From Clostridia bacterium (GTDB lineage Bacteria; Bacillota; Clostridia; UBA1381; UMGS1253): a DNA stretch of 64,000 nucleotides. Where the stretch lies: contig JAZRUW010000004.1 of the NCBI GenBank assembly GCA_045652745.1, positions 24,277-88,276 of the forward strand. The letters run 5' to 3'. Under the pieces are notes generated by a model, which saw nothing but the letters and a program-made list of their open reading frames with translations, made no database searches and was not told where the DNA came from. This document shows positions 5,819 through 45,858 of this stretch, piece after piece. The translations under genes and the position numbers were made by a program. Each line of letters opens with the position of its first letter. The stretch's first letter is position 1.

Positions 5819-5894
5819 GCTGGTGTAGCTCAATTGGCAGAGCAGCTGATTTGTAATCAGCAGGTTGCGGGTTCGAGTCCCATCACCAGCTCCA
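5819..5894 (+). tRNA. tRNA-Thr (anticodon TGT)
   Basis: Manual cloverleaf: acceptor GCTGGTG/CACCAGC, D arm GCTC..GAGC, anticodon arm GCTGA-TTTGTAA-TCAGC, T loop TTCGAGT, encoded CCA. There is one C-A mismatch in the T stem. Confidence 0.88.
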
Positions 5895-5897
5895 TAC

Positions 5898-5982
5898 GGA
5901 AGAGTTCCCGAGTGGCCAAAGGGGGCAGACTGTAAATCTGTTGCTTTCAGCTTCGATGGTTCGAATCCATCCTCTTCCACCA
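5898..5982 (+). tRNA. tRNA-Tyr (anticodon GTA), long variable arm
   Basis: Acceptor GGAAGAG/CTCTTCC, anticodon loop CTGTAAA, long variable arm, T arm GATGG-TTCGAAT-CCATC, encoded CCA. Confidence 0.92.
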
Positions 5983-5983
5983 G

Positions 5984-6015
5984 AAAAAAGCATCGACTTT
6001 GTCGGTGCTTTTTTC
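5984..6015 (+). terminator. intrinsic terminator after the tRNAs
   Basis: GCATCGAC-tttg-GTCGGTGC stem followed by TTTTTT. Confidence 0.7.
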
Positions 6016-6017
6016 AA

Positions 6018-6179
6018 TGAAATTTGCCTACGGCAAGTGAAATAGCTCCGCTATGAAATACACTTCGCGTATGAAATATTGCTTCGCAATATGAAAGGCA
6101 AATTTTATTTCACATTTTGCGTTAGCAAATTATTTCATAATCCGCAGGATTATTTCATATCAACGAAGTTGATATTTCA
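6018..6179. repeat. array of seven distinct mini-hairpins separated by TGAAAT (x5, forward) and ATTTCA (x4, inverted) linkers
   Basis: Linkers start at 6018, 6038, 6054, 6072, 6092 (forward) and 6107, 6132, 6152, 6174 (inverted). Each spacer is a different 5-8 bp palindromic stem with a 3-4 nt loop. See findings. Confidence 0.6.
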
Positions 6180-9773: not shown

Positions 9774-9856
9774 CCAACCTGCTTAGTTATCACCTCTTTG
9801 TCATTTTCCGCACCCGTACACTTTTGCAACCAAATATGTCATTTTCCCCAAAGCCA

Positions 9857-9908
9857 ACAAATTTCTACACGCAATAAAAAAGCACTCCGTCGGAGTGCTT
9901 TTTTATTA
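9857..9908. repeat. 52-bp direct repeat copy 1 (contains a terminator hairpin)
   Basis: ACAAATTTCTACACGCAATAAAAAAGCACTCCGtCGGAGTGCTTTTTTATT. Identical to 10685-10736 except for the loop base. Confidence 0.9.
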
Positions 9909-10662: not shown

Positions 10663-10684
10663 GTTTTTTATTTCGCAAAAAAAG

Positions 10685-10736
10685 ACAAATTTCTACACGC
10701 AATAAAAAAGCACTCCGACGGAGTGCTTTTTTATTC
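10685..10736. repeat. 52-bp direct repeat copy 2 (nrdD terminator)
   Basis: Same sequence as 9857-9908 with one loop difference. The hairpin is AGCACTCCG-a-CGGAGTGCT with flanking A6/T6. Confidence 0.9.
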
Positions 10737-27899: not shown

Positions 27900-28040
27900 A
27901 GACTCATCCTCTTTCATCCGGACTTTAACCGTCGGCTTCGGAATCACACCGAATCAGTCTTGCGACTCGCGGGCTGTATATCTGACTTTAAAGGCCAAAT
28001 TATCCGCCGGTAGGGAATCACACCCAACCCTGAAGATTTC
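27900..28040 (-). promoter_or_regulatory. FMN riboswitch (RFN element)
   Basis: The minus strand reads ...CAGGGTTGGGTGTGATTCCCTACCGGCGGATAA...CAGCCCGCGAGTC...GATTCGGTGTGATTCCGAAGCCGACGGTTAAAGTCCGGATGAAAGAGGATGA. This matches the conserved RFN core blocks. Confidence 0.88.
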
Positions 28041-28049
28041 TCTTTAATT

Positions 28050-40619: not shown

Positions 40620-41567
40620 TTATTTCTTTGCAATAAGAGCCTTTGCCGCTTTTTCAATGTGCGGTGCGCTCATCTCAAATTCATTAAGCAACTGCATCGG
40701 CTCACCGGAGCAACCAAAGGTGTCCTTTACGCCGATAATGTCCATAATCGTCGGGCAATTCTTGGAAAGTGTTTCTGCAACCGCGCCGCCGAGACCGCCG
40801 AGTACGTTATGCTCTTCGCATACCAATACTGCGCCGCACTTCTTTGCAGACTCAATCACCAGTTCTTCGTCAAGCGGTTTAATTGTAGCAATGTCTACCA
40901 ATCTTACGCTAATGCCCTGCGCTTCCAAAGCATCTGCCGCTTTTACTGCCTCATGGAGCAAAAGACCGGAACCGATAATTGCGATGTCACTGCCTTCACG
41001 CAAAACTCTGCCCTTACCGATTTCAAATGTGCCGTACTCATCCGGATCAAACAAAATCGGCATAGCCAGACGGCAAACACGCAGATACACCGGACCATCG
41101 TAGTCCGCGATTGCACGCAACGCTGCTTTGGTTTCCGTGCCGTCTGCCGGAGAAATTACAGTCATATTCGGCATTGCACGCATCAGCGCAACGTCTTCAA
41201 CACATTGATGCGAAGCACCGTCCTCACCAACGGTGAGACCTGCATGCGAACCAACCACGCAAACACCCAGGTTCGGGTATGCGATAGAGTTTCTAATCTG
41301 CTCATAGGCTCTGCCGGAAGAAAACATTGCAAAGGAAGCCGCAAATACTTTTTTACCGGCGGAAGCAAGACCTGCCGCCGTTGTCATCATGTTGCCCTCT
41401 GCAATACCGCAGTTTACAAAACGTTCCGGATATTTTTCTTTAAATATGTAGGTCATGGTGGACTTGCTGAGGTCTGCATCCAAAACCACAATATCTTCTC
41501 TGCCGCCAATCTCGGCAAGCTCTTCACCAAACGCAAGTCTGGTTGCAATCGGTTTTAATTCTGCCAT
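40620..41567 (-). CDS. transketolase, C-terminal (pyrimidine-binding) subunit
   Basis: Split-transketolase C-terminal half (FVNCGIAEGNMM...). Adjacent to the N-terminal subunit. Confidence 0.93.
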   Translation of the reverse strand: MAELKPIATRLAFGEELAEIGGREDIVVLDADLSKSTMTYIFKEKYPERFVNCGIAEGNMMTTAAGLASAGKKVFAASFAMFSSGRAYEQIRNSIAYPNLGVCVVGSHAGLTVGEDGASHQCVEDVALMRAMPNMTVISPADGTETKAALRAIADYDGPVYLRVCRLAMPILFDPDEYGTFEIGKGRVLREGSDIAIIGSGLLLHEAVKAADALEAQGISVRLVDIATIKPLDEELVIESAKKCGAVLVCEEHNVLGGLGGAVAETLSKNCPTIMDIIGVKDTFGCSGEPMQLLNEFEMSAPHIEKAAKALIAKK

Positions 41568-41569
41568 AA

Positions 41570-42415
41570 TTAAAGCGCCTCCAATTCTTTATCGATGGCT
41601 TCCAAATCAGCCATAGCCTTATTGTATTCGTCTTCGCTCGGTGCCTTACCGTGCCAGCCGTAGTTGTTTTCCATGAAGGAAACGCCCTTACCCTTAATTG
41701 TAGAGCAGATAACCGCTGTCGGCTTGCCCTTTACGGTCTTAGCCTCTGCAATTGCATTAGAAATTGCCTCGAGATCGTGACCGTCGATGCAAATTACATG
41801 GAAACCGAATGCCTTATACTTTTCATCAATCGGATGCGGATTCATTACGGTGCGGATATCACCGTCAATCTGCAGATTGTTGTTGTCGATAAAAATTGTA
41901 AGATTATCGAGCTTGTGATGTGCCGCAAACATTGCTGCTTCCCAAACTTCGCCTTCCTCAATTTCACCGTCACCGAGCGCCGCATATACACGGTAATCGG
42001 AGCCGTCAATCTTTGCAGCCTTTGCCATACCGCCTGCAGCCGCAACGCCCTGACCGAGCGAGCCTGTAGACATATCTACGCCCGGCACACCCTTCATATC
42101 CGGGTGACCCTGCAGGAAATGACCGAATTTACGCAAGTTTACGATCTCTGCCGGATCAAAAAATCCACGCTCTGCCAGTACGCCGTACAGCGCCGGTGCA
42201 CAATGACCCTTCGAAAGCACGAAACGGTCACGCTTCGGATCCTTCGGGTTGGTCGGGTCCACATTCATTTCATCAAAATACAATACGGTCAGCACGTCTG
42301 CAATCGACAGCGAGCCGCCCGGATGGCCGCATTTCGCACTGTAAACACCTGTTAAGATGCTTTTACGAACGCGGTTGGCAACCTGTGCCAGTTCTTTTAC
42401 TCTTTCCGGTTTCAT
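41570..42415 (-). CDS. transketolase, N-terminal (TPP-binding) subunit
   Basis: GHPGGSLS, SKGHCAPALY and GDGEIEEG are TPP-binding motifs. Confidence 0.93.
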   Translation of the reverse strand: MKPERVKELAQVANRVRKSILTGVYSAKCGHPGGSLSIADVLTVLYFDEMNVDPTNPKDPKRDRFVLSKGHCAPALYGVLAERGFFDPAEIVNLRKFGHFLQGHPDMKGVPGVDMSTGSLGQGVAAAGGMAKAAKIDGSDYRVYAALGDGEIEEGEVWEAAMFAAHHKLDNLTIFIDNNNLQIDGDIRTVMNPHPIDEKYKAFGFHVICIDGHDLEAISNAIAEAKTVKGKPTAVICSTIKGKGVSFMENNYGWHGKAPSEDEYNKAMADLEAIDKELEAL

Positions 42416-42451
42416 ACCAGATTCCTCCTCAGTTTAGTATATATTTGAAAA

Positions 42452-42868
42452 CTAAATTGTTTCCTGTGTTTGTGCCGCCTCGAAAGCCAAACTCAAAATT
42501 TCACTAAGCCGCTCGGGCGTATCCTTTAAATATAAATATCCTAAAAGTGCTTCAAAGCCCGTTGCCGCACGGTAATCGGACACGCGCGCATTTTTCGGCA
42601 CCGTTGCACTGTGTGCATTGCGTCCGCGCTTGAAGACCGCAACTTCGTCTTCCGAAAGCACATCCATAATGGCATAAACGCTTTTTGCCTGCGCCGCCGC
42701 CTTGACATAGGACGTCGCCGTTTTATGTATGGTGTTGGTCGGAAGCGACCCACCCGCACTCAAACGTGTACGCACATATAAATCATATACGCTGTCGCCG
42801 ATAATCGCAAGCGTCAGCGGTGCATAAAGCTGCGGATTTTCAATCCCCAGTTCTGAAATCAGTTTCAT
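42452..42868 (-). CDS. mrnC: Mini-ribonuclease 3
   Basis: LAIIGDSVYDLYVR is an RNase III-like signature without a dsRBD. 138 aa, downstream of cysS as in Bacillus yazC. Confidence 0.88.
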   Translation of the reverse strand: MKLISELGIENPQLYAPLTLAIIGDSVYDLYVRTRLSAGGSLPTNTIHKTATSYVKAAAQAKSVYAIMDVLSEDEVAVFKRGRNAHSATVPKNARVSDYRAATGFEALLGYLYLKDTPERLSEILSLAFEAAQTQETI

Positions 42869-42930
42869 AATCAGGTTCCTTTGCTATTAAAACAGACGTT
42901 CGGGGGCAGTGAAGCAGTGCGCTATCCAAA

Positions 42931-43131
42931 TCTTTCTGTCTAAAAACAGAATTTCGGATGCAGTGCTAGGCGCAGACGATGGCACAGTACGTTGGTACGG
43001 GCCATCGGTTGCAACGACGCAATTCGCAAAAATCTCGTTCTTTCTGTCTAAGAATGGAAATTTGGATGCAGTGCAAGGCGCAGACGATGGCACAGTACGT
43101 TGGTACGGGCCATCGGTTGCAACGACGCAAT
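42931..43131. repeat. tandem duplication (period 108 bp) of a 93-nt structured element between cysS and mrnC
   Basis: 42931-43023 and 43039-43131 align without gaps. The 66-nt core GGATGCAGTGC(t/a)AGGCGCAGACGATGGCACAGTACGTTGGTACGGGCCATCGGTTGCAACGACGCAAT has a single difference. Confidence 0.85.
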
Positions 43132-43140
43132 GCGCCAAAT

Positions 43141-44532
43141 TTACTTCTTAGACCATTTTACGCCTTCGCGAGTATCTTCTAAGATAATGCCCATATCCAA
43201 AAGTTTTGCACGGATGGCATCGGCGGTGGCAAAATCTTTTGCCTTTTTCGCGGCGGTGCGCTGTGCAATCAAATCCTCAATTTCAGCATCGAGGGTTTCT
43301 TCTTCCTGTGCCGTTTCCACACCGAGTACGGCGCAGAGTTCGGTTAATGTATCGAGAAGCAGGGACAGCGTTTGCTTGGTTACGTTTTCGCTTGCAGCGG
43401 TGGTGTTGGCGGTTTTGGCCAGTTCAAAAATCGAACCGATGGCTGCGGCGGTGTTGAGGTCATCATCCATCGCTTCTTTAAAGCTTGTCACGTGCTGCTC
43501 TACGAGCGTTGCCGTTTCAGCATCGAGTTCACCGTCGGCGGCATGCTCGAGTTTAAAGCGCAGGCTGGAAGCACAATTCATAAGGCGCTCAAGGCCTGCT
43601 TTTGCCTGCTGCAAAAGTGCATCGGCAAAGTTAATCGGGCTTCTGTAATGCGCAGAAAGCATGAAGAAACGAATTACGGAATAATCAAAATGCTTTACAA
43701 TATCACGAACGGTAAAGAAGTTACCGAGCGATTTACTCATTTTCACACCGTCTACATTGATGTAGCCGTTGTGGAGCCAGTAGTGCGCCAGCGGTTGGCC
43801 ATTGGCCGCTTCGCTTTGCGCGATTTCATTTTCGTGGTGCGGGAAAATCAAATCCTTACCGCCGGCATGGATGTCAATCGTTTTACCGAGATACTTGGTA
43901 GACATCGCGGAGCATTCAATGTGCCAGCCCGGTCTGCCCATGCCCCACGGACTTTCCCATGCAGGCTCGCCCGGCTTCTGCGCCTTCCAGAGCGCAAAAT
44001 CCATCGGGTCACGCTTGCGCTCGTCTACGCTGATGCGCGCGCCGGATTCCAAATCTTCGAGCGGCTGATGCGACAGTTTACCGTAGTCTTTGAATTTCTT
44101 GGTCGCATAGTACACATCGCCGTCTACCTCGTAGGCATAGCCTTCGGCAATGAGCTTTTCCACAATCTCAATAATTTCCGCAATGTGCTCGGTTGCGCGC
44201 GGATGCACGCTTGCCTCGCGGATGTTCAAGCCTTGTGCGTCTACGCGGTATTCCGCAATAAAACGGTCCGCCAGTTCACGCACGGTGATGCCTTCTTTGT
44301 TGGCACGGTTAATCATCTTGTCATCAATATCCGTAAAATTCTGCACGAAGGTTACTTTGTAACCGCTGTACTCAAAGTAGCGGCGCAGCGTATCAAACAC
44401 GATAAACGGACGCGCGTTGCCGATATGGAAAAAGTCATACACAGTCGGGCCGCAGGCATACATTTTCACCTCGCCCGGTGTAATCGGGATAAATTCTTCT
44501 TTTGCTTTGGTTAATGAGTTATATAATTTCAT
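43141..44532 (-). CDS. cysS: cysteine--tRNA ligase
   Basis: Class I motifs HIGNARP (HIGH) and KMSKS, Zn-binding cysteines, 463 aa. Confidence 0.96.
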   Translation of the reverse strand: MKLYNSLTKAKEEFIPITPGEVKMYACGPTVYDFFHIGNARPFIVFDTLRRYFEYSGYKVTFVQNFTDIDDKMINRANKEGITVRELADRFIAEYRVDAQGLNIREASVHPRATEHIAEIIEIVEKLIAEGYAYEVDGDVYYATKKFKDYGKLSHQPLEDLESGARISVDERKRDPMDFALWKAQKPGEPAWESPWGMGRPGWHIECSAMSTKYLGKTIDIHAGGKDLIFPHHENEIAQSEAANGQPLAHYWLHNGYINVDGVKMSKSLGNFFTVRDIVKHFDYSVIRFFMLSAHYRSPINFADALLQQAKAGLERLMNCASSLRFKLEHAADGELDAETATLVEQHVTSFKEAMDDDLNTAAAIGSIFELAKTANTTAASENVTKQTLSLLLDTLTELCAVLGVETAQEEETLDAEIEDLIAQRTAAKKAKDFATADAIRAKLLDMGIILEDTREGVKWSKK

Positions 44533-45173
44533 TGTTTGCCCTCCTCTGCCTCGGCAAGTTTCTTTTCCAGCTTTTCTACGCGCATAAGCACTTTACAAAG
44601 TTCCATGCTGACAGGGTCCGGAATGTGAATCTGGTCAAGGTCCGCGCAAACACGCTGCCCTGCGCGCTTGACCATTCTGCCCGGCACACCCACGCAGGTA
44701 GAATTTTCTTCGACCTCGGATAAAACCACCGCATTTGCGGCAATCTTGGCATTGTCGCCCACTTTAAACGGGCCAAGCACCTTTGCGCCGGCACCAATCA
44801 TAACATTATTGCCGAGTGTCGGGTGTCTTTTACCGACATCCTTACCCGTACCGCCGAGCGTCACGCCCTGATAGATGGTACAGTTGTCGCCGATTTCTGC
44901 AGTTTCACCAATCACCACGCCAGCACCGTGGTCAATTAACAGTCCGCGGCCGATGGTTGCGCCCGGATGAATTTCAATCCCCGTCCAGAATTTACACGTC
45001 TGCGATACCCAACGCGCCGTAAATTTCATATGGTGTTTATAAAACCAATGCGCCACGCGGTGATACAAAAGCGCATGAAAGCCGGGATAAAGCAAAAAAA
45101 CTTCCAAGCCGTTTCTCGCCGCCGGATCGCGCTCCAGTATAGCTTTTATATCATATCGAATGTTTTTGAACAT
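44529..45173 (-). CDS. cysE: serine O-acetyltransferase
   Basis: SATase N-terminal domain (DIKAILERDPAA) plus hexapeptide repeats. AAAGGAGAA RBS precedes ATG 45171-45173. Overlaps cysS. Confidence 0.93.
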   Translation of the reverse strand: MFKNIRYDIKAILERDPAARNGLEVFLLYPGFHALLYHRVAHWFYKHHMKFTARWVSQTCKFWTGIEIHPGATIGRGLLIDHGAGVVIGETAEIGDNCTIYQGVTLGGTGKDVGKRHPTLGNNVMIGAGAKVLGPFKVGDNAKIAANAVVLSEVEENSTCVGVPGRMVKRAGQRVCADLDQIHIPDPVSMELCKVLMRVEKLEKKLAEAEEGKQ

Positions 45174-45357
45174 ACCATTCTCCTTTTCAAGGCACACTTA
45201 TACCTATGCCACATTATATTATATAATTTTTTTGCGCTTTCGTCAATATGCCAAATGCACATTCTTTTGCCTTTTTGTCCGAAAATTTTCTCAAAAATTT
45301 GCAATTCTTCCGTATACTTGGTATAATAAGGACACTACATTTTGCGGAGTGAGAACT

Positions 45358-45858
45358 ATGCACAAAAATATAATTTTAATCGGCATGCCCGGCAGCGGCA
45401 AATCTACGCTCGGCGTGGTGTTGGCAAAAGTGCTCGGCATGGGTTTTTCCGATATGGATTTATTGATACAACAACGCGGCGGTAAAAAGCTGCAAGACAT
45501 TTTAAACACAGACGGTTTGGATGCCTTTTTAAAAACGGAAGAGGAAACGATTTTGTCCGTTACGGGCGAAAATATGGTACTCGCCACGGGCGGCAGCGCG
45601 GTTCTAAGCGAAAAGGCCATGGTGCATTTAAAAAAGCTCGGCACCGTCGTCTACCTGAAAGTGCCCTACAAAATTCTTTTGCGCCGCATCCGCAACATGG
45701 CCACGCGCGGCATCGCGTGCCTGCCGGGACAAACGCTTCTGGATATTTATCAATACCGCACGCCGCTCTATGAAAAATACGCAGACATCACCGTAGAAAC
45801 CAAAAACAAAAGATTTGAACAAAGCGTAGACGAAATTATAAAATCCCTCGGTGCATAA
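45358..45858 (+). CDS. aroK: shikimate kinase
   Basis: IILIGMPGSGKSTLG P-loop, about 166 aa. Promoter is TTGCAA-17-TGgTATAAT at 45298-45326. Confidence 0.9.
   Translation: MHKNIILIGMPGSGKSTLGVVLAKVLGMGFSDMDLLIQQRGGKKLQDILNTDGLDAFLKTEEETILSVTGENMVLATGGSAVLSEKAMVHLKKLGTVVYLKVPYKILLRRIRNMATRGIACLPGQTLLDIYQYRTPLYEKYADITVETKNKRFEQSVDEIIKSLGA

Follow-up and report, generated by a model that had tools for sequence, protein, structure and literature searches.

A low-copy tandem hairpin repeat at the cysS-mrnC junction of uncultured gut-type Clostridia

Repetitive extragenic palindromic (REP) sequences and bacterial interspersed mosaic elements (BIMEs) are intercistronic hairpins, often arranged in tandem clusters, for example in the Escherichia coli malEFG operon; they protect the upstream mRNA from 3′ exonucleases, a property reportedly described by Stern and colleagues in 1988. 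The RNase III signals that lie between the cistrons of phage T7 early mRNA are irregular 20-30-bp hairpins with internal loops, as is the signal in the E. coli rnc leader, upstream of the nuclease's own gene, where RNase III controls its own mRNA. Other repeats resemble miniature inverted-repeat transposable elements (MITEs) and are co-transcribed at gene 3′ ends, such as ERIC (enterobacterial repetitive intergenic consensus) and bcr1 of the Bacillus cereus group, intergenic imperfect palindromes of ~100-155 nt often found just past the 3′ end of a gene, for which compensatory changes that keep the RNA duplex and effects on mRNA stability have been reported (PMC3184786). The Correia elements of Neisseria (CREE/NEMIS) form long hairpins in mRNAs from their inverted ends, and their binding or cleavage by RNase III alters the adjacent genes (PMC2649163). 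Here we describe a genuine, undescribed, low-copy intergenic hairpin repeat that is confined to a narrow clade of uncultured gut-type Clostridia. It lies in a 64,000-nt stretch of DNA from a Clostridia bacterium (NCBI GenBank assembly GCA_045652745.1, contig JAZRUW010000004.1, positions 24,277 to 88,276; the whole stretch is referred to as the window), where it occupies the 272-nt spacer (42869-43140) that separates two minus-strand genes, cysS, encoding cysteine--tRNA ligase, and mrnC, encoding Mini-RNase III (Mini-III).

The spacer carries two tandem head-to-tail units of ~106 nt on the minus strand. In the sense of the operon, unit 1 (43035-43140; 116.4 bits with covariance model R1 and 112.8 bits with covariance model R2) is made of a rod at 43060-43140 and an AU-rich tail at 43035-43059, and unit 2 (42927-43032; 112.1 and 105.3 bits) of a rod at 42952-43032 and a tail at 42927-42951; they correspond to copies 2 and 1, respectively, of the initial annotation of this DNA. 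The UAA stop codon of cysS immediately adjoins unit 1. As read from the sequence, only the start of a truncated third unit is present at 42914-42931 (minus strand), where AUUUGGAUAGCGCACUGC resembles the unit start AUUUGGCGCAUUGCG, and comparable partial units also trail the arrays of L022, one of the related genomes introduced below. Tandem Repeats Finder reported a single array, at 42931-43139, with a period of 108, 1.9 copies, 92% matches and a score of 362. A 34-nt core occurs exactly twice in the window and in none of 100 shuffles, and folding of the spacer beats 200 of 200 shuffles (z = -3.7); taken with the gene calls, these results establish that the tandem structured repeat seen in the initial annotation is real and lies within the cysE-cysS-mrnC-tkt string. 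When 42931-43031 and 43039-43139 are aligned, 8 of 101 positions are mismatched, and the sole mismatch within the 68 nt of 42956-43023 is 42967 T / 43075 A, in agreement with the earlier description of 66-nt cores that are identical except for one base; the diverged 5′ segment is likewise as quoted there (42944-42955 versus 43052-63). Two open reading frames (ORFs) of 83 and 80 aa had been dismissed as repeat artefacts, rightly so, since they have no significant Pfam match and could not exist in relatives that have just one unit or lack the spacer. A coding role for a 21-codon ORF in unit 1 was also rejected, as on inspection this ORF is not kept in relatives.

We gathered relatives (given L numbers here) through homologues of MrnC and CysS and the contigs that encode them; the gene order cysE-cysS-mrnC-tktN-tktC is common to all of them. 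Six lineages carry the element in the cysS-mrnC spacer, so that its absence from relatives, an outcome which the initial annotation had named as contrary to its proposal, is not what we observe. The first lineage comprises the window and L001, whose MrnC is identical to that of the window and whose 164-nt spacer holds one unit. The second comprises L002 (metagenome-assembled genome (MAG) GCA_045578865.1; MrnC 93% identity; one unit) together with L003 and L004, two samples that have the same MrnC as L002 and two units. L005, L010 and L011 (MrnC 85%, 87% and 84% identity, respectively) each have one diverged unit, and L022 (GCA_054295285.1; CysS 89%) has two units. No unit is present in L006-L009 (MrnC 80% identity), which have no spacer and in which cysS and mrnC overlap by one base (TAATG), in L015 (83%), which has a different short hairpin, or in L016 (65%), which has a 27-nt spacer. 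The MrnC of all carriers begins with MKLIS or MKFIS and that of the overlapping type with MAFIPE, and every relative with an MKLIS/MKFIS MrnC has one or two units. Copy number differs within close pairs, namely the window (two) and L001 (one), and L003 (two) and L002 (one). L002 comes from a k=141 assembly, so its single unit is not a collapsed repeat, and the copy number truly varies between one and two among strains that are 97-98% identical. A protein-anchored scan of JGI metagenomes for MrnC relatives returned none.

Several further observations concern this junction and CysS. In L021 (Logan ERR3393553), whose CysS is identical to that of the window, the contig stops after 35 nt of the first unit; short-read assemblies are apt to break at the repeat, and this may hide the element in many metagenome assemblies. 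A different hairpin, GGGACCG-gcgtcctcga-CGGTCC, stands alone in the cysS-mrnC spacer of L015 (1206-1334), and another (GGGACG...CGTCCC) is located after the unit in L005 (2928-3000), so the junction seems prone to hairpin acquisition. The second codon of the L015 mrnC frame is TAA (ATG TAA TTT), which could mean damage to the gene or a start at another site. P0130, a CysS homologue from an ENA contig with 61% identity over the full query, is 705 aa long, ~240 residues longer than normal, and could be a fusion or a read-through call.

Individual minimum-energy folds pointed to the whole first 81 nt of the unit as one long imperfect hairpin. The resulting rod model was evaluated on a model-based alignment of 11 units from the six lineages, in which the outer helices, being unpaired in the first model, were aligned by sequence alone. 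In this model each unit is an 81-nt rod-like hairpin with 28 pairs in five stacked helices, and thus wider than the 11-bp hairpin first noted. Paired cells make up 88.6% of the rod, versus 25-44% after the 3′ partners have been shifted by 1-3 columns, and double (compensatory) changes are found in 13 of the 28 pairs; the covariation score is 0.350, compared with 0.172 in shuffles, and none of 500 shuffles reaches the observed value. The central hairpin CGAUGGC-CC-GUAC-CAAC-GUAC-UGU-GCCAUCG (43085-43115 in unit 1 and, with the same sequence, 42977-43007 in unit 2, both minus strand) had been recognized at the outset, and the covariation analysis that was then suggested supports it, with compensatory changes in 6 of 12 pairs. 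RNAalifold, applied to eight units, independently recovers the same hairpin (compensatory changes in 7 of 15 predicted pairs). The flanking helices proposed at the same time, UUGC/GCAA and GGCGCA/UGCGCC, are less well supported than a continuous rod: their outer helix is 66.7% paired with one covarying pair, compared with 86.2% and double changes in 7 of 12 pairs for the outer helices of the rod, among them G5-C77 to C-G, C9-G72 to A-U and U12-A69 to A-U. A three-way fold built from the local UUGC/GCAA hairpin and the GGCGCA/UGCGCC pairing scored below the single rod and was discarded.

Apart from pairing, a number of details are shared by all units. The three apical pairs UAC/GUA are invariant around a tetraloop of any sequence (UAC-N4-GUA), and all units have a single bulged base on the 3′ side of the apical stem, UCGUUG with its UCG left unpaired, the pair U19·G62 and the 3′ strand CGCC-U-N-GCAC. 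The AU-rich tail 3′ of the rod is conserved across units as UUUUYAGA. Unit ends are inverted repeats (AAATTTGG...CCAAATTT), and the rod, bounded by AAAUUUGG and CCAAAUUU, is a long imperfect palindrome of the kind that characterizes MITE-like repeats. The hairpins fall into three sequence types that are 36-58% identical between types with the pairing kept: type A in the window, L002 and L003, type B in L005, L011 and a copy next to asnS in L022, and type C in L010 and the cysS units of L022. At mrnC four-fold sites the window is 42-55% identical to L005, L010 and L011, which is near saturation, and the persistence of pairing over such distances calls for an explanation beyond recent common descent. 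Hypermutation of the hairpin was considered and rejected, because the difference between L002 and L003 (8 in 121 nt versus 56 in ~4,000 nt) matches the neutral four-fold rate.

Two covariance models run without filters found no further copy in the 64-kb window, where the best unrelated score was 16 bits, and in ~140 kb of related loci no other copy except the one in L022 (5017-5120). All five type-A units contain the 19-mer ATTGCGTCGTTGCAACCGA unchanged. Among the GTDB representative genomes it has a single match, which lies on the L002 contig, and it is unique in the whole MAG GCA_045578865.1, so that its uniqueness on a whole-genome scale applies to one MAG and to a probe which the other hairpin types would escape. 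Other exact 19-mer matches in genome, metagenome and viral collections were rejected as chance, their flanks being 15-27% identical to the unit. The spread over many unrelated sites that a high-copy REP would display, the second contrary outcome named in the initial annotation, is therefore not seen in the window, the related loci and the one whole MAG that these searches covered. The Rfam search advised there matched no family: Rfam 15 gave no match up to E=10 in 42000-44000, apart from an unrelated weak match outside the spacer, no match to the spacer element at gathering scores in the whole window, and no match up to E=1 in 4900-11700 of L022, where units of types B and C lie. A blastn search of the spacer against plasmid and phage collections found nothing. 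The 3′ flank GCCUUGCACU has some likeness to the 5′ region of 23S ribosomal RNA (rRNA) (GCCUUGGCACU), which we judged to be chance, as the Rfam large-subunit rRNA models gave no match.

The additional copy in L022 (5017-5120, within a segment that extends to 5170, contig JAZSVE010000002.1) lies 13 nt after the asnS stop codon and upstream of asnA. Its start, TCTAAAAGGTAA, matches 11 of 12 bases of the last four cysS codons, and its end consists of a tail and the first 21 nt of a next unit. With cysS-derived sequence on both sides, it is a segmental copy of ~1.3 units of the cysS array, as opposed to a transposed unit delimited by the inverted ends, and the asnS-asnA target shows no duplication. 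At the cysS locus itself, the end of cysS (UCUAARAAG) resembles the tail (UUUAGAAAAAG), a likeness which a tandem unit boundary explains as well as a target-site duplication would. The ectopic hairpin is of type B and the cysS units of the same genome are of type C, and so either the copy is old or the array has since been homogenized. In L022 the asnA gene follows asnS, whereas in three related lineages it either stands upstream in divergent orientation or is missing. The idea of a shared second site behind asnS was dropped, since three other lineages have different asnS neighbors and no unit there, which makes the asnS copy lineage-specific and places it at a rearranged junction. No transposase gene was found beside any copy in the loci read.

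Set against the known systems, the element is closest in kind to REP/MITE-like repeats, and to that extent the suggestion that it might be a small mobile unit of this type was apt; its very low copy number and the segmental nature of the ectopic copy do not fit clean transposition. ERIC and bcr1 elements are dispersed in tens to hundreds of copies and flanked by direct repeats, whereas the present element occupies one locus per genome (two in L022) in tandem units, lacks a clear target-site duplication and does not resemble them in sequence. The Correia repeats are MITEs of high copy number that have TA duplications, IHF sites and promoter-forming ends, none of which is seen here, although they offer the closest model for how the rod could work. 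REPs are GC-rich, 20-40 nt long, number in the hundreds and are associated with RAYT transposases, and in BIMEs they alternate in orientation; the units described here, with 106 nt, 38-54% G+C and 1-3 copies, are head-to-tail and do not match the REP definition. The T7 and rnc signals resemble the rod as irregular hairpins placed between cistrons or upstream of a nuclease gene; the RNase III box is described in PMC5141509. The element belongs to a familiar kind of repeat, and only three traits set it apart: very few copies, units in tandem, and confinement to a single operon junction within a narrow clade.

The element probably arose once, when a junction at which cysS and mrnC had overlapped was remade in the common ancestor of the carriers, a single origin being indicated by the new MrnC N-terminus that the carriers also share. 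The simplest subsequent history is vertical descent as one or two units with concerted evolution. The cores in the window are identical at 53 of 53 positions and the tails at 32 of 42; the two cysS units of L022 are 97-98% identical over rod and hairpin, with tails at 64%. Homogenized cores next to differing tails point to gene conversion between units, and the arrays offer a compact test case for the concerted evolution of tandem hairpin repeats. Comparison of tails as a test of the age of the duplication (33/42 versus 32/42 identical) gives weak support for an ancient event: the duplication may have preceded the split between the window and L003, or independent duplications may have been followed by gene conversion.

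We tentatively favor the view, drawn by analogy, that the element is a co-transcribed palindromic repeat of the ERIC/bcr1 and Correia kind which may act as an intercistronic processing or stability module. The proposal stems from its anatomy, which is that of co-transcribed palindromic repeats: a duplex with an AU-rich tail, placed after a stop codon in the sense orientation, with no internal promoter or terminator. Promoter and terminator scans found no promoter-like and no terminator-like site on either strand of the spacer, 42869-43140, which makes its co-transcription plausible, and all 11 units are oriented alike relative to the flanking genes; taken together, the uniform orientation and the lack of a promoter-like site mean that the sense RNA is the one certainly made. 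The element would be transcribed as part of the cysE-cysS-mrnC-tkt mRNA, where an endonuclease of the RNase III type might cleave within the long duplex, or one of the RNase Y type within the single-stranded, AU-rich tail. After the cut, the cysE-cysS fragment would end in a rod that shields it from 3′ exonucleases; where two units are present, the mrnC-tkt fragment would begin with the second rod and be guarded against a 5′ exonuclease. Expression of the synthetase genes would in this way be uncoupled from that of mrnC-tkt, replacing the translational coupling of the element-less relatives. If this is true, a translationally coupled junction with a one-base overlap has been rebuilt by a structured repeat into an independently tunable one, and a covariation-supported RNA motif listed in no database is added from uncultured gut Clostridia.

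Several points weigh against this proposal. The mechanism is entirely one that we infer, and the sample is small (11 units, six lineages, three hairpin types), which limits the number of independent compensatory events. The assignment of the rod to the sense strand is not settled by counting mismatches: 20 sense-strand cells are G·U, 11 of which are the single invariant pair U19·G62, and ten are A·C and would be G·U on the other strand; folding energies favor neither strand. The apparent conservation of the tail may in part be mere duplication of the 3′ end of cysS. Finally, the sister lineages L006-L009, L015 and L016 lack the element altogether and its copy number varies between close strains, which together imply that it is dispensable.

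Some of the same observations fit another explanation that we consider less likely than the processing or stability module but take seriously, in which the element is a selfish or neutral low-copy palindromic repeat, either a MITE-like insertion relic or a locally made quasi-palindrome, without a role in the cell. Its pairing would then be kept by processes at the DNA level, namely template switching in quasi-palindromes and gene conversion between units, and not by selection on an RNA. Variable copy number between close strains, element-less sister lineages, ends that are inverted repeats, cores homogenized within a genome with differing tails, an ectopic segmental copy at a rearranged asnS-asnA junction and the unsettled strand of the structure all fit such a repeat, and template switching can also produce 'compensatory' changes in quasi-palindromes. 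Palindrome repair, however, does not explain the conservation of unpaired motifs (UCGUUG and the bulge) or of the apical UAC/GUA, and all six carrier lineages keep at least one unit despite near-saturated synonymous sites. The lack of a clear target-site duplication and of dispersed copies also speaks against a selfish repeat.

The position of the element directly upstream of a gene for a double-stranded RNA (dsRNA) endonuclease invites the thought that the long duplex serves Mini-III (or RNase III) as a substrate or decoy, with the enzyme controlling its own mRNA, and the initial annotation had raised such a substrate mimic. We regard this as rather improbable. The rod would supply ~28 bp of imperfect dsRNA just upstream of mrnC, its 28 pairs in stacked helices reach the length of about two helical turns or more that is expected of an RNase III or Mini-III substrate, and gain of the element coincides with the uncoupling of mrnC from cysS and with the new MrnC N-terminus. 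Mini-III enzymes cut long dsRNA unaided, with a preference for WSSW tetranucleotides, ACCU in the case of the Bacillus subtilis enzyme (PMC5141509). However, no WSSW or ACCU is conserved at a fixed helical position among the 11 units, a comparison in which the preference is taken from the B. subtilis enzyme and may not be that of the host, and the only such tetranucleotide that recurs in the rod (UGCA/AGCA, columns 66-69) is found in 5 of the 11. The extra copy of L022 lies between asnS and asnA, away from mrnC, the element is missing from related lineages whose MrnC is of the same family, and the nearest rod in the window ends ~85 nt before the mrnC start codon, clear of the ribosome-binding site. 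A literature search turned up no natural non-rRNA substrate of Mini-III in bacteria. Given the asnS-asnA copy, the lack of a conserved WSSW and the element-less sister lineages, adjacency to mrnC is left as the sole positive evidence for a link specific to Mini-III, and we do not uphold that claim. The more elaborate form of this idea seems doubtful to a still greater degree: the rod would act in cis as a dedicated regulatory RNA by which Mini-III (or RNase III) gauges its own abundance or the state of ribosome assembly and adjusts mrnC expression, with the tandem duplication tuning the strength of the feedback. If it were true, a bacterial Mini-III would for the first time have a natural mRNA substrate and an autoregulatory circuit.

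A partial transcription stop or attenuator, in which the rod and a U-rich stretch would lower read-through from cysS into mrnC-tkt, is very unlikely. Rods with predicted energies of about -19 to -33 kcal/mol are indeed followed by a U-rich stretch (UUUCCAUUCUU or UCUGUUUUU) conserved as UUUUYAGA, but the rod has an AU-rich base, 8-12 nt separate the helix from the U run, the spacer gave nothing in the terminator scan and no alternative anti-terminator fold is evident. An intrinsic terminator proper was rejected on similar grounds, as the GC-rich stem with a U run within 0-2 nt that defines one is not present (AU-rich base, U run 8-12 nt downstream).

The least probable of the explanations considered is a function of the other strand or of the DNA itself, as an antisense small RNA or as a palindrome serving as a protein-binding or recombination site: the antisense strand folds equally well or better in about half of the units, the ten A·C mismatches noted above become G·U on it and the asnS-asnA copy sits at a rearranged junction, but neither strand of the spacer has a promoter-like site, the orientation relative to the flanking genes is the same in all 11 units and U19·G62 is invariant in the sense strand. 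An integron attC site was also discarded, because the ends AAAUUUGG and CCAAAUUU and their complement are without R′′ (RYYYAAC) or R′ (GTTRRRY) boxes.

The genes around the spacer are all encoded on the minus strand. In the ORF list, cysS (43141-44532) encodes a protein of 463 aa (TIGR00435, 613 bits), and mrnC (42452-42868) one of 138 aa (PF00636, E=2.5e-21), with homologues named 'Mini-ribonuclease 3'. MrnC is a lone RNase III catalytic domain (PF00636) without a dsRNA-binding domain, its nearest named relative is from 'Candidatus Aphodoplasma' (61% identity), and a Shine-Dalgarno-like AAAGGAA can be read in the sequence 5′ of the gene (42876-42882). Upstream in the same string lies cysE (44529-45197), for serine O-acetyltransferase (TIGR01172, 245.8 bits), preceded by the top promoter-like site of the promoter scan (45218-45246; TTGACG-17-TATAAT, 11/12), and 3′ of mrnC follows a split transketolase (40620-42415; N-terminal part 41570-42415, C-terminal part 40620-41567). 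Divergent from cysE, on the plus strand, is an ORF with a shikimate-kinase fold (45160-45858), which scores 175.6 bits against 'homoserine kinase, Desulfo type' (NF040667), under the cut-off of 197. As listed it overlaps cysE by 38 nt; the version in relatives has 166 aa, and its true start is therefore probably further downstream.

Elsewhere in the window, a Gut-1 RNA (RF01706, 51.3 bits against a gathering score of 50) is found at 6015-6082 on the plus strand, directly following tRNA-Thr (5819-5894) and tRNA-Tyr (5898-5982), and a full-length FMN riboswitch (RF00050, 103.9 bits) at 27902-28041 on the minus strand. Two 65-nt direct repeats on the plus strand (9843-9907 and 10671-10735), 89% identical and 828 nt apart, each end in a terminator-like hairpin with a T run (AAAAAAGCACTCCGTCGGAGTGCTTTTTT), and could represent duplicated terminators or mark the two ends of a small insertion.

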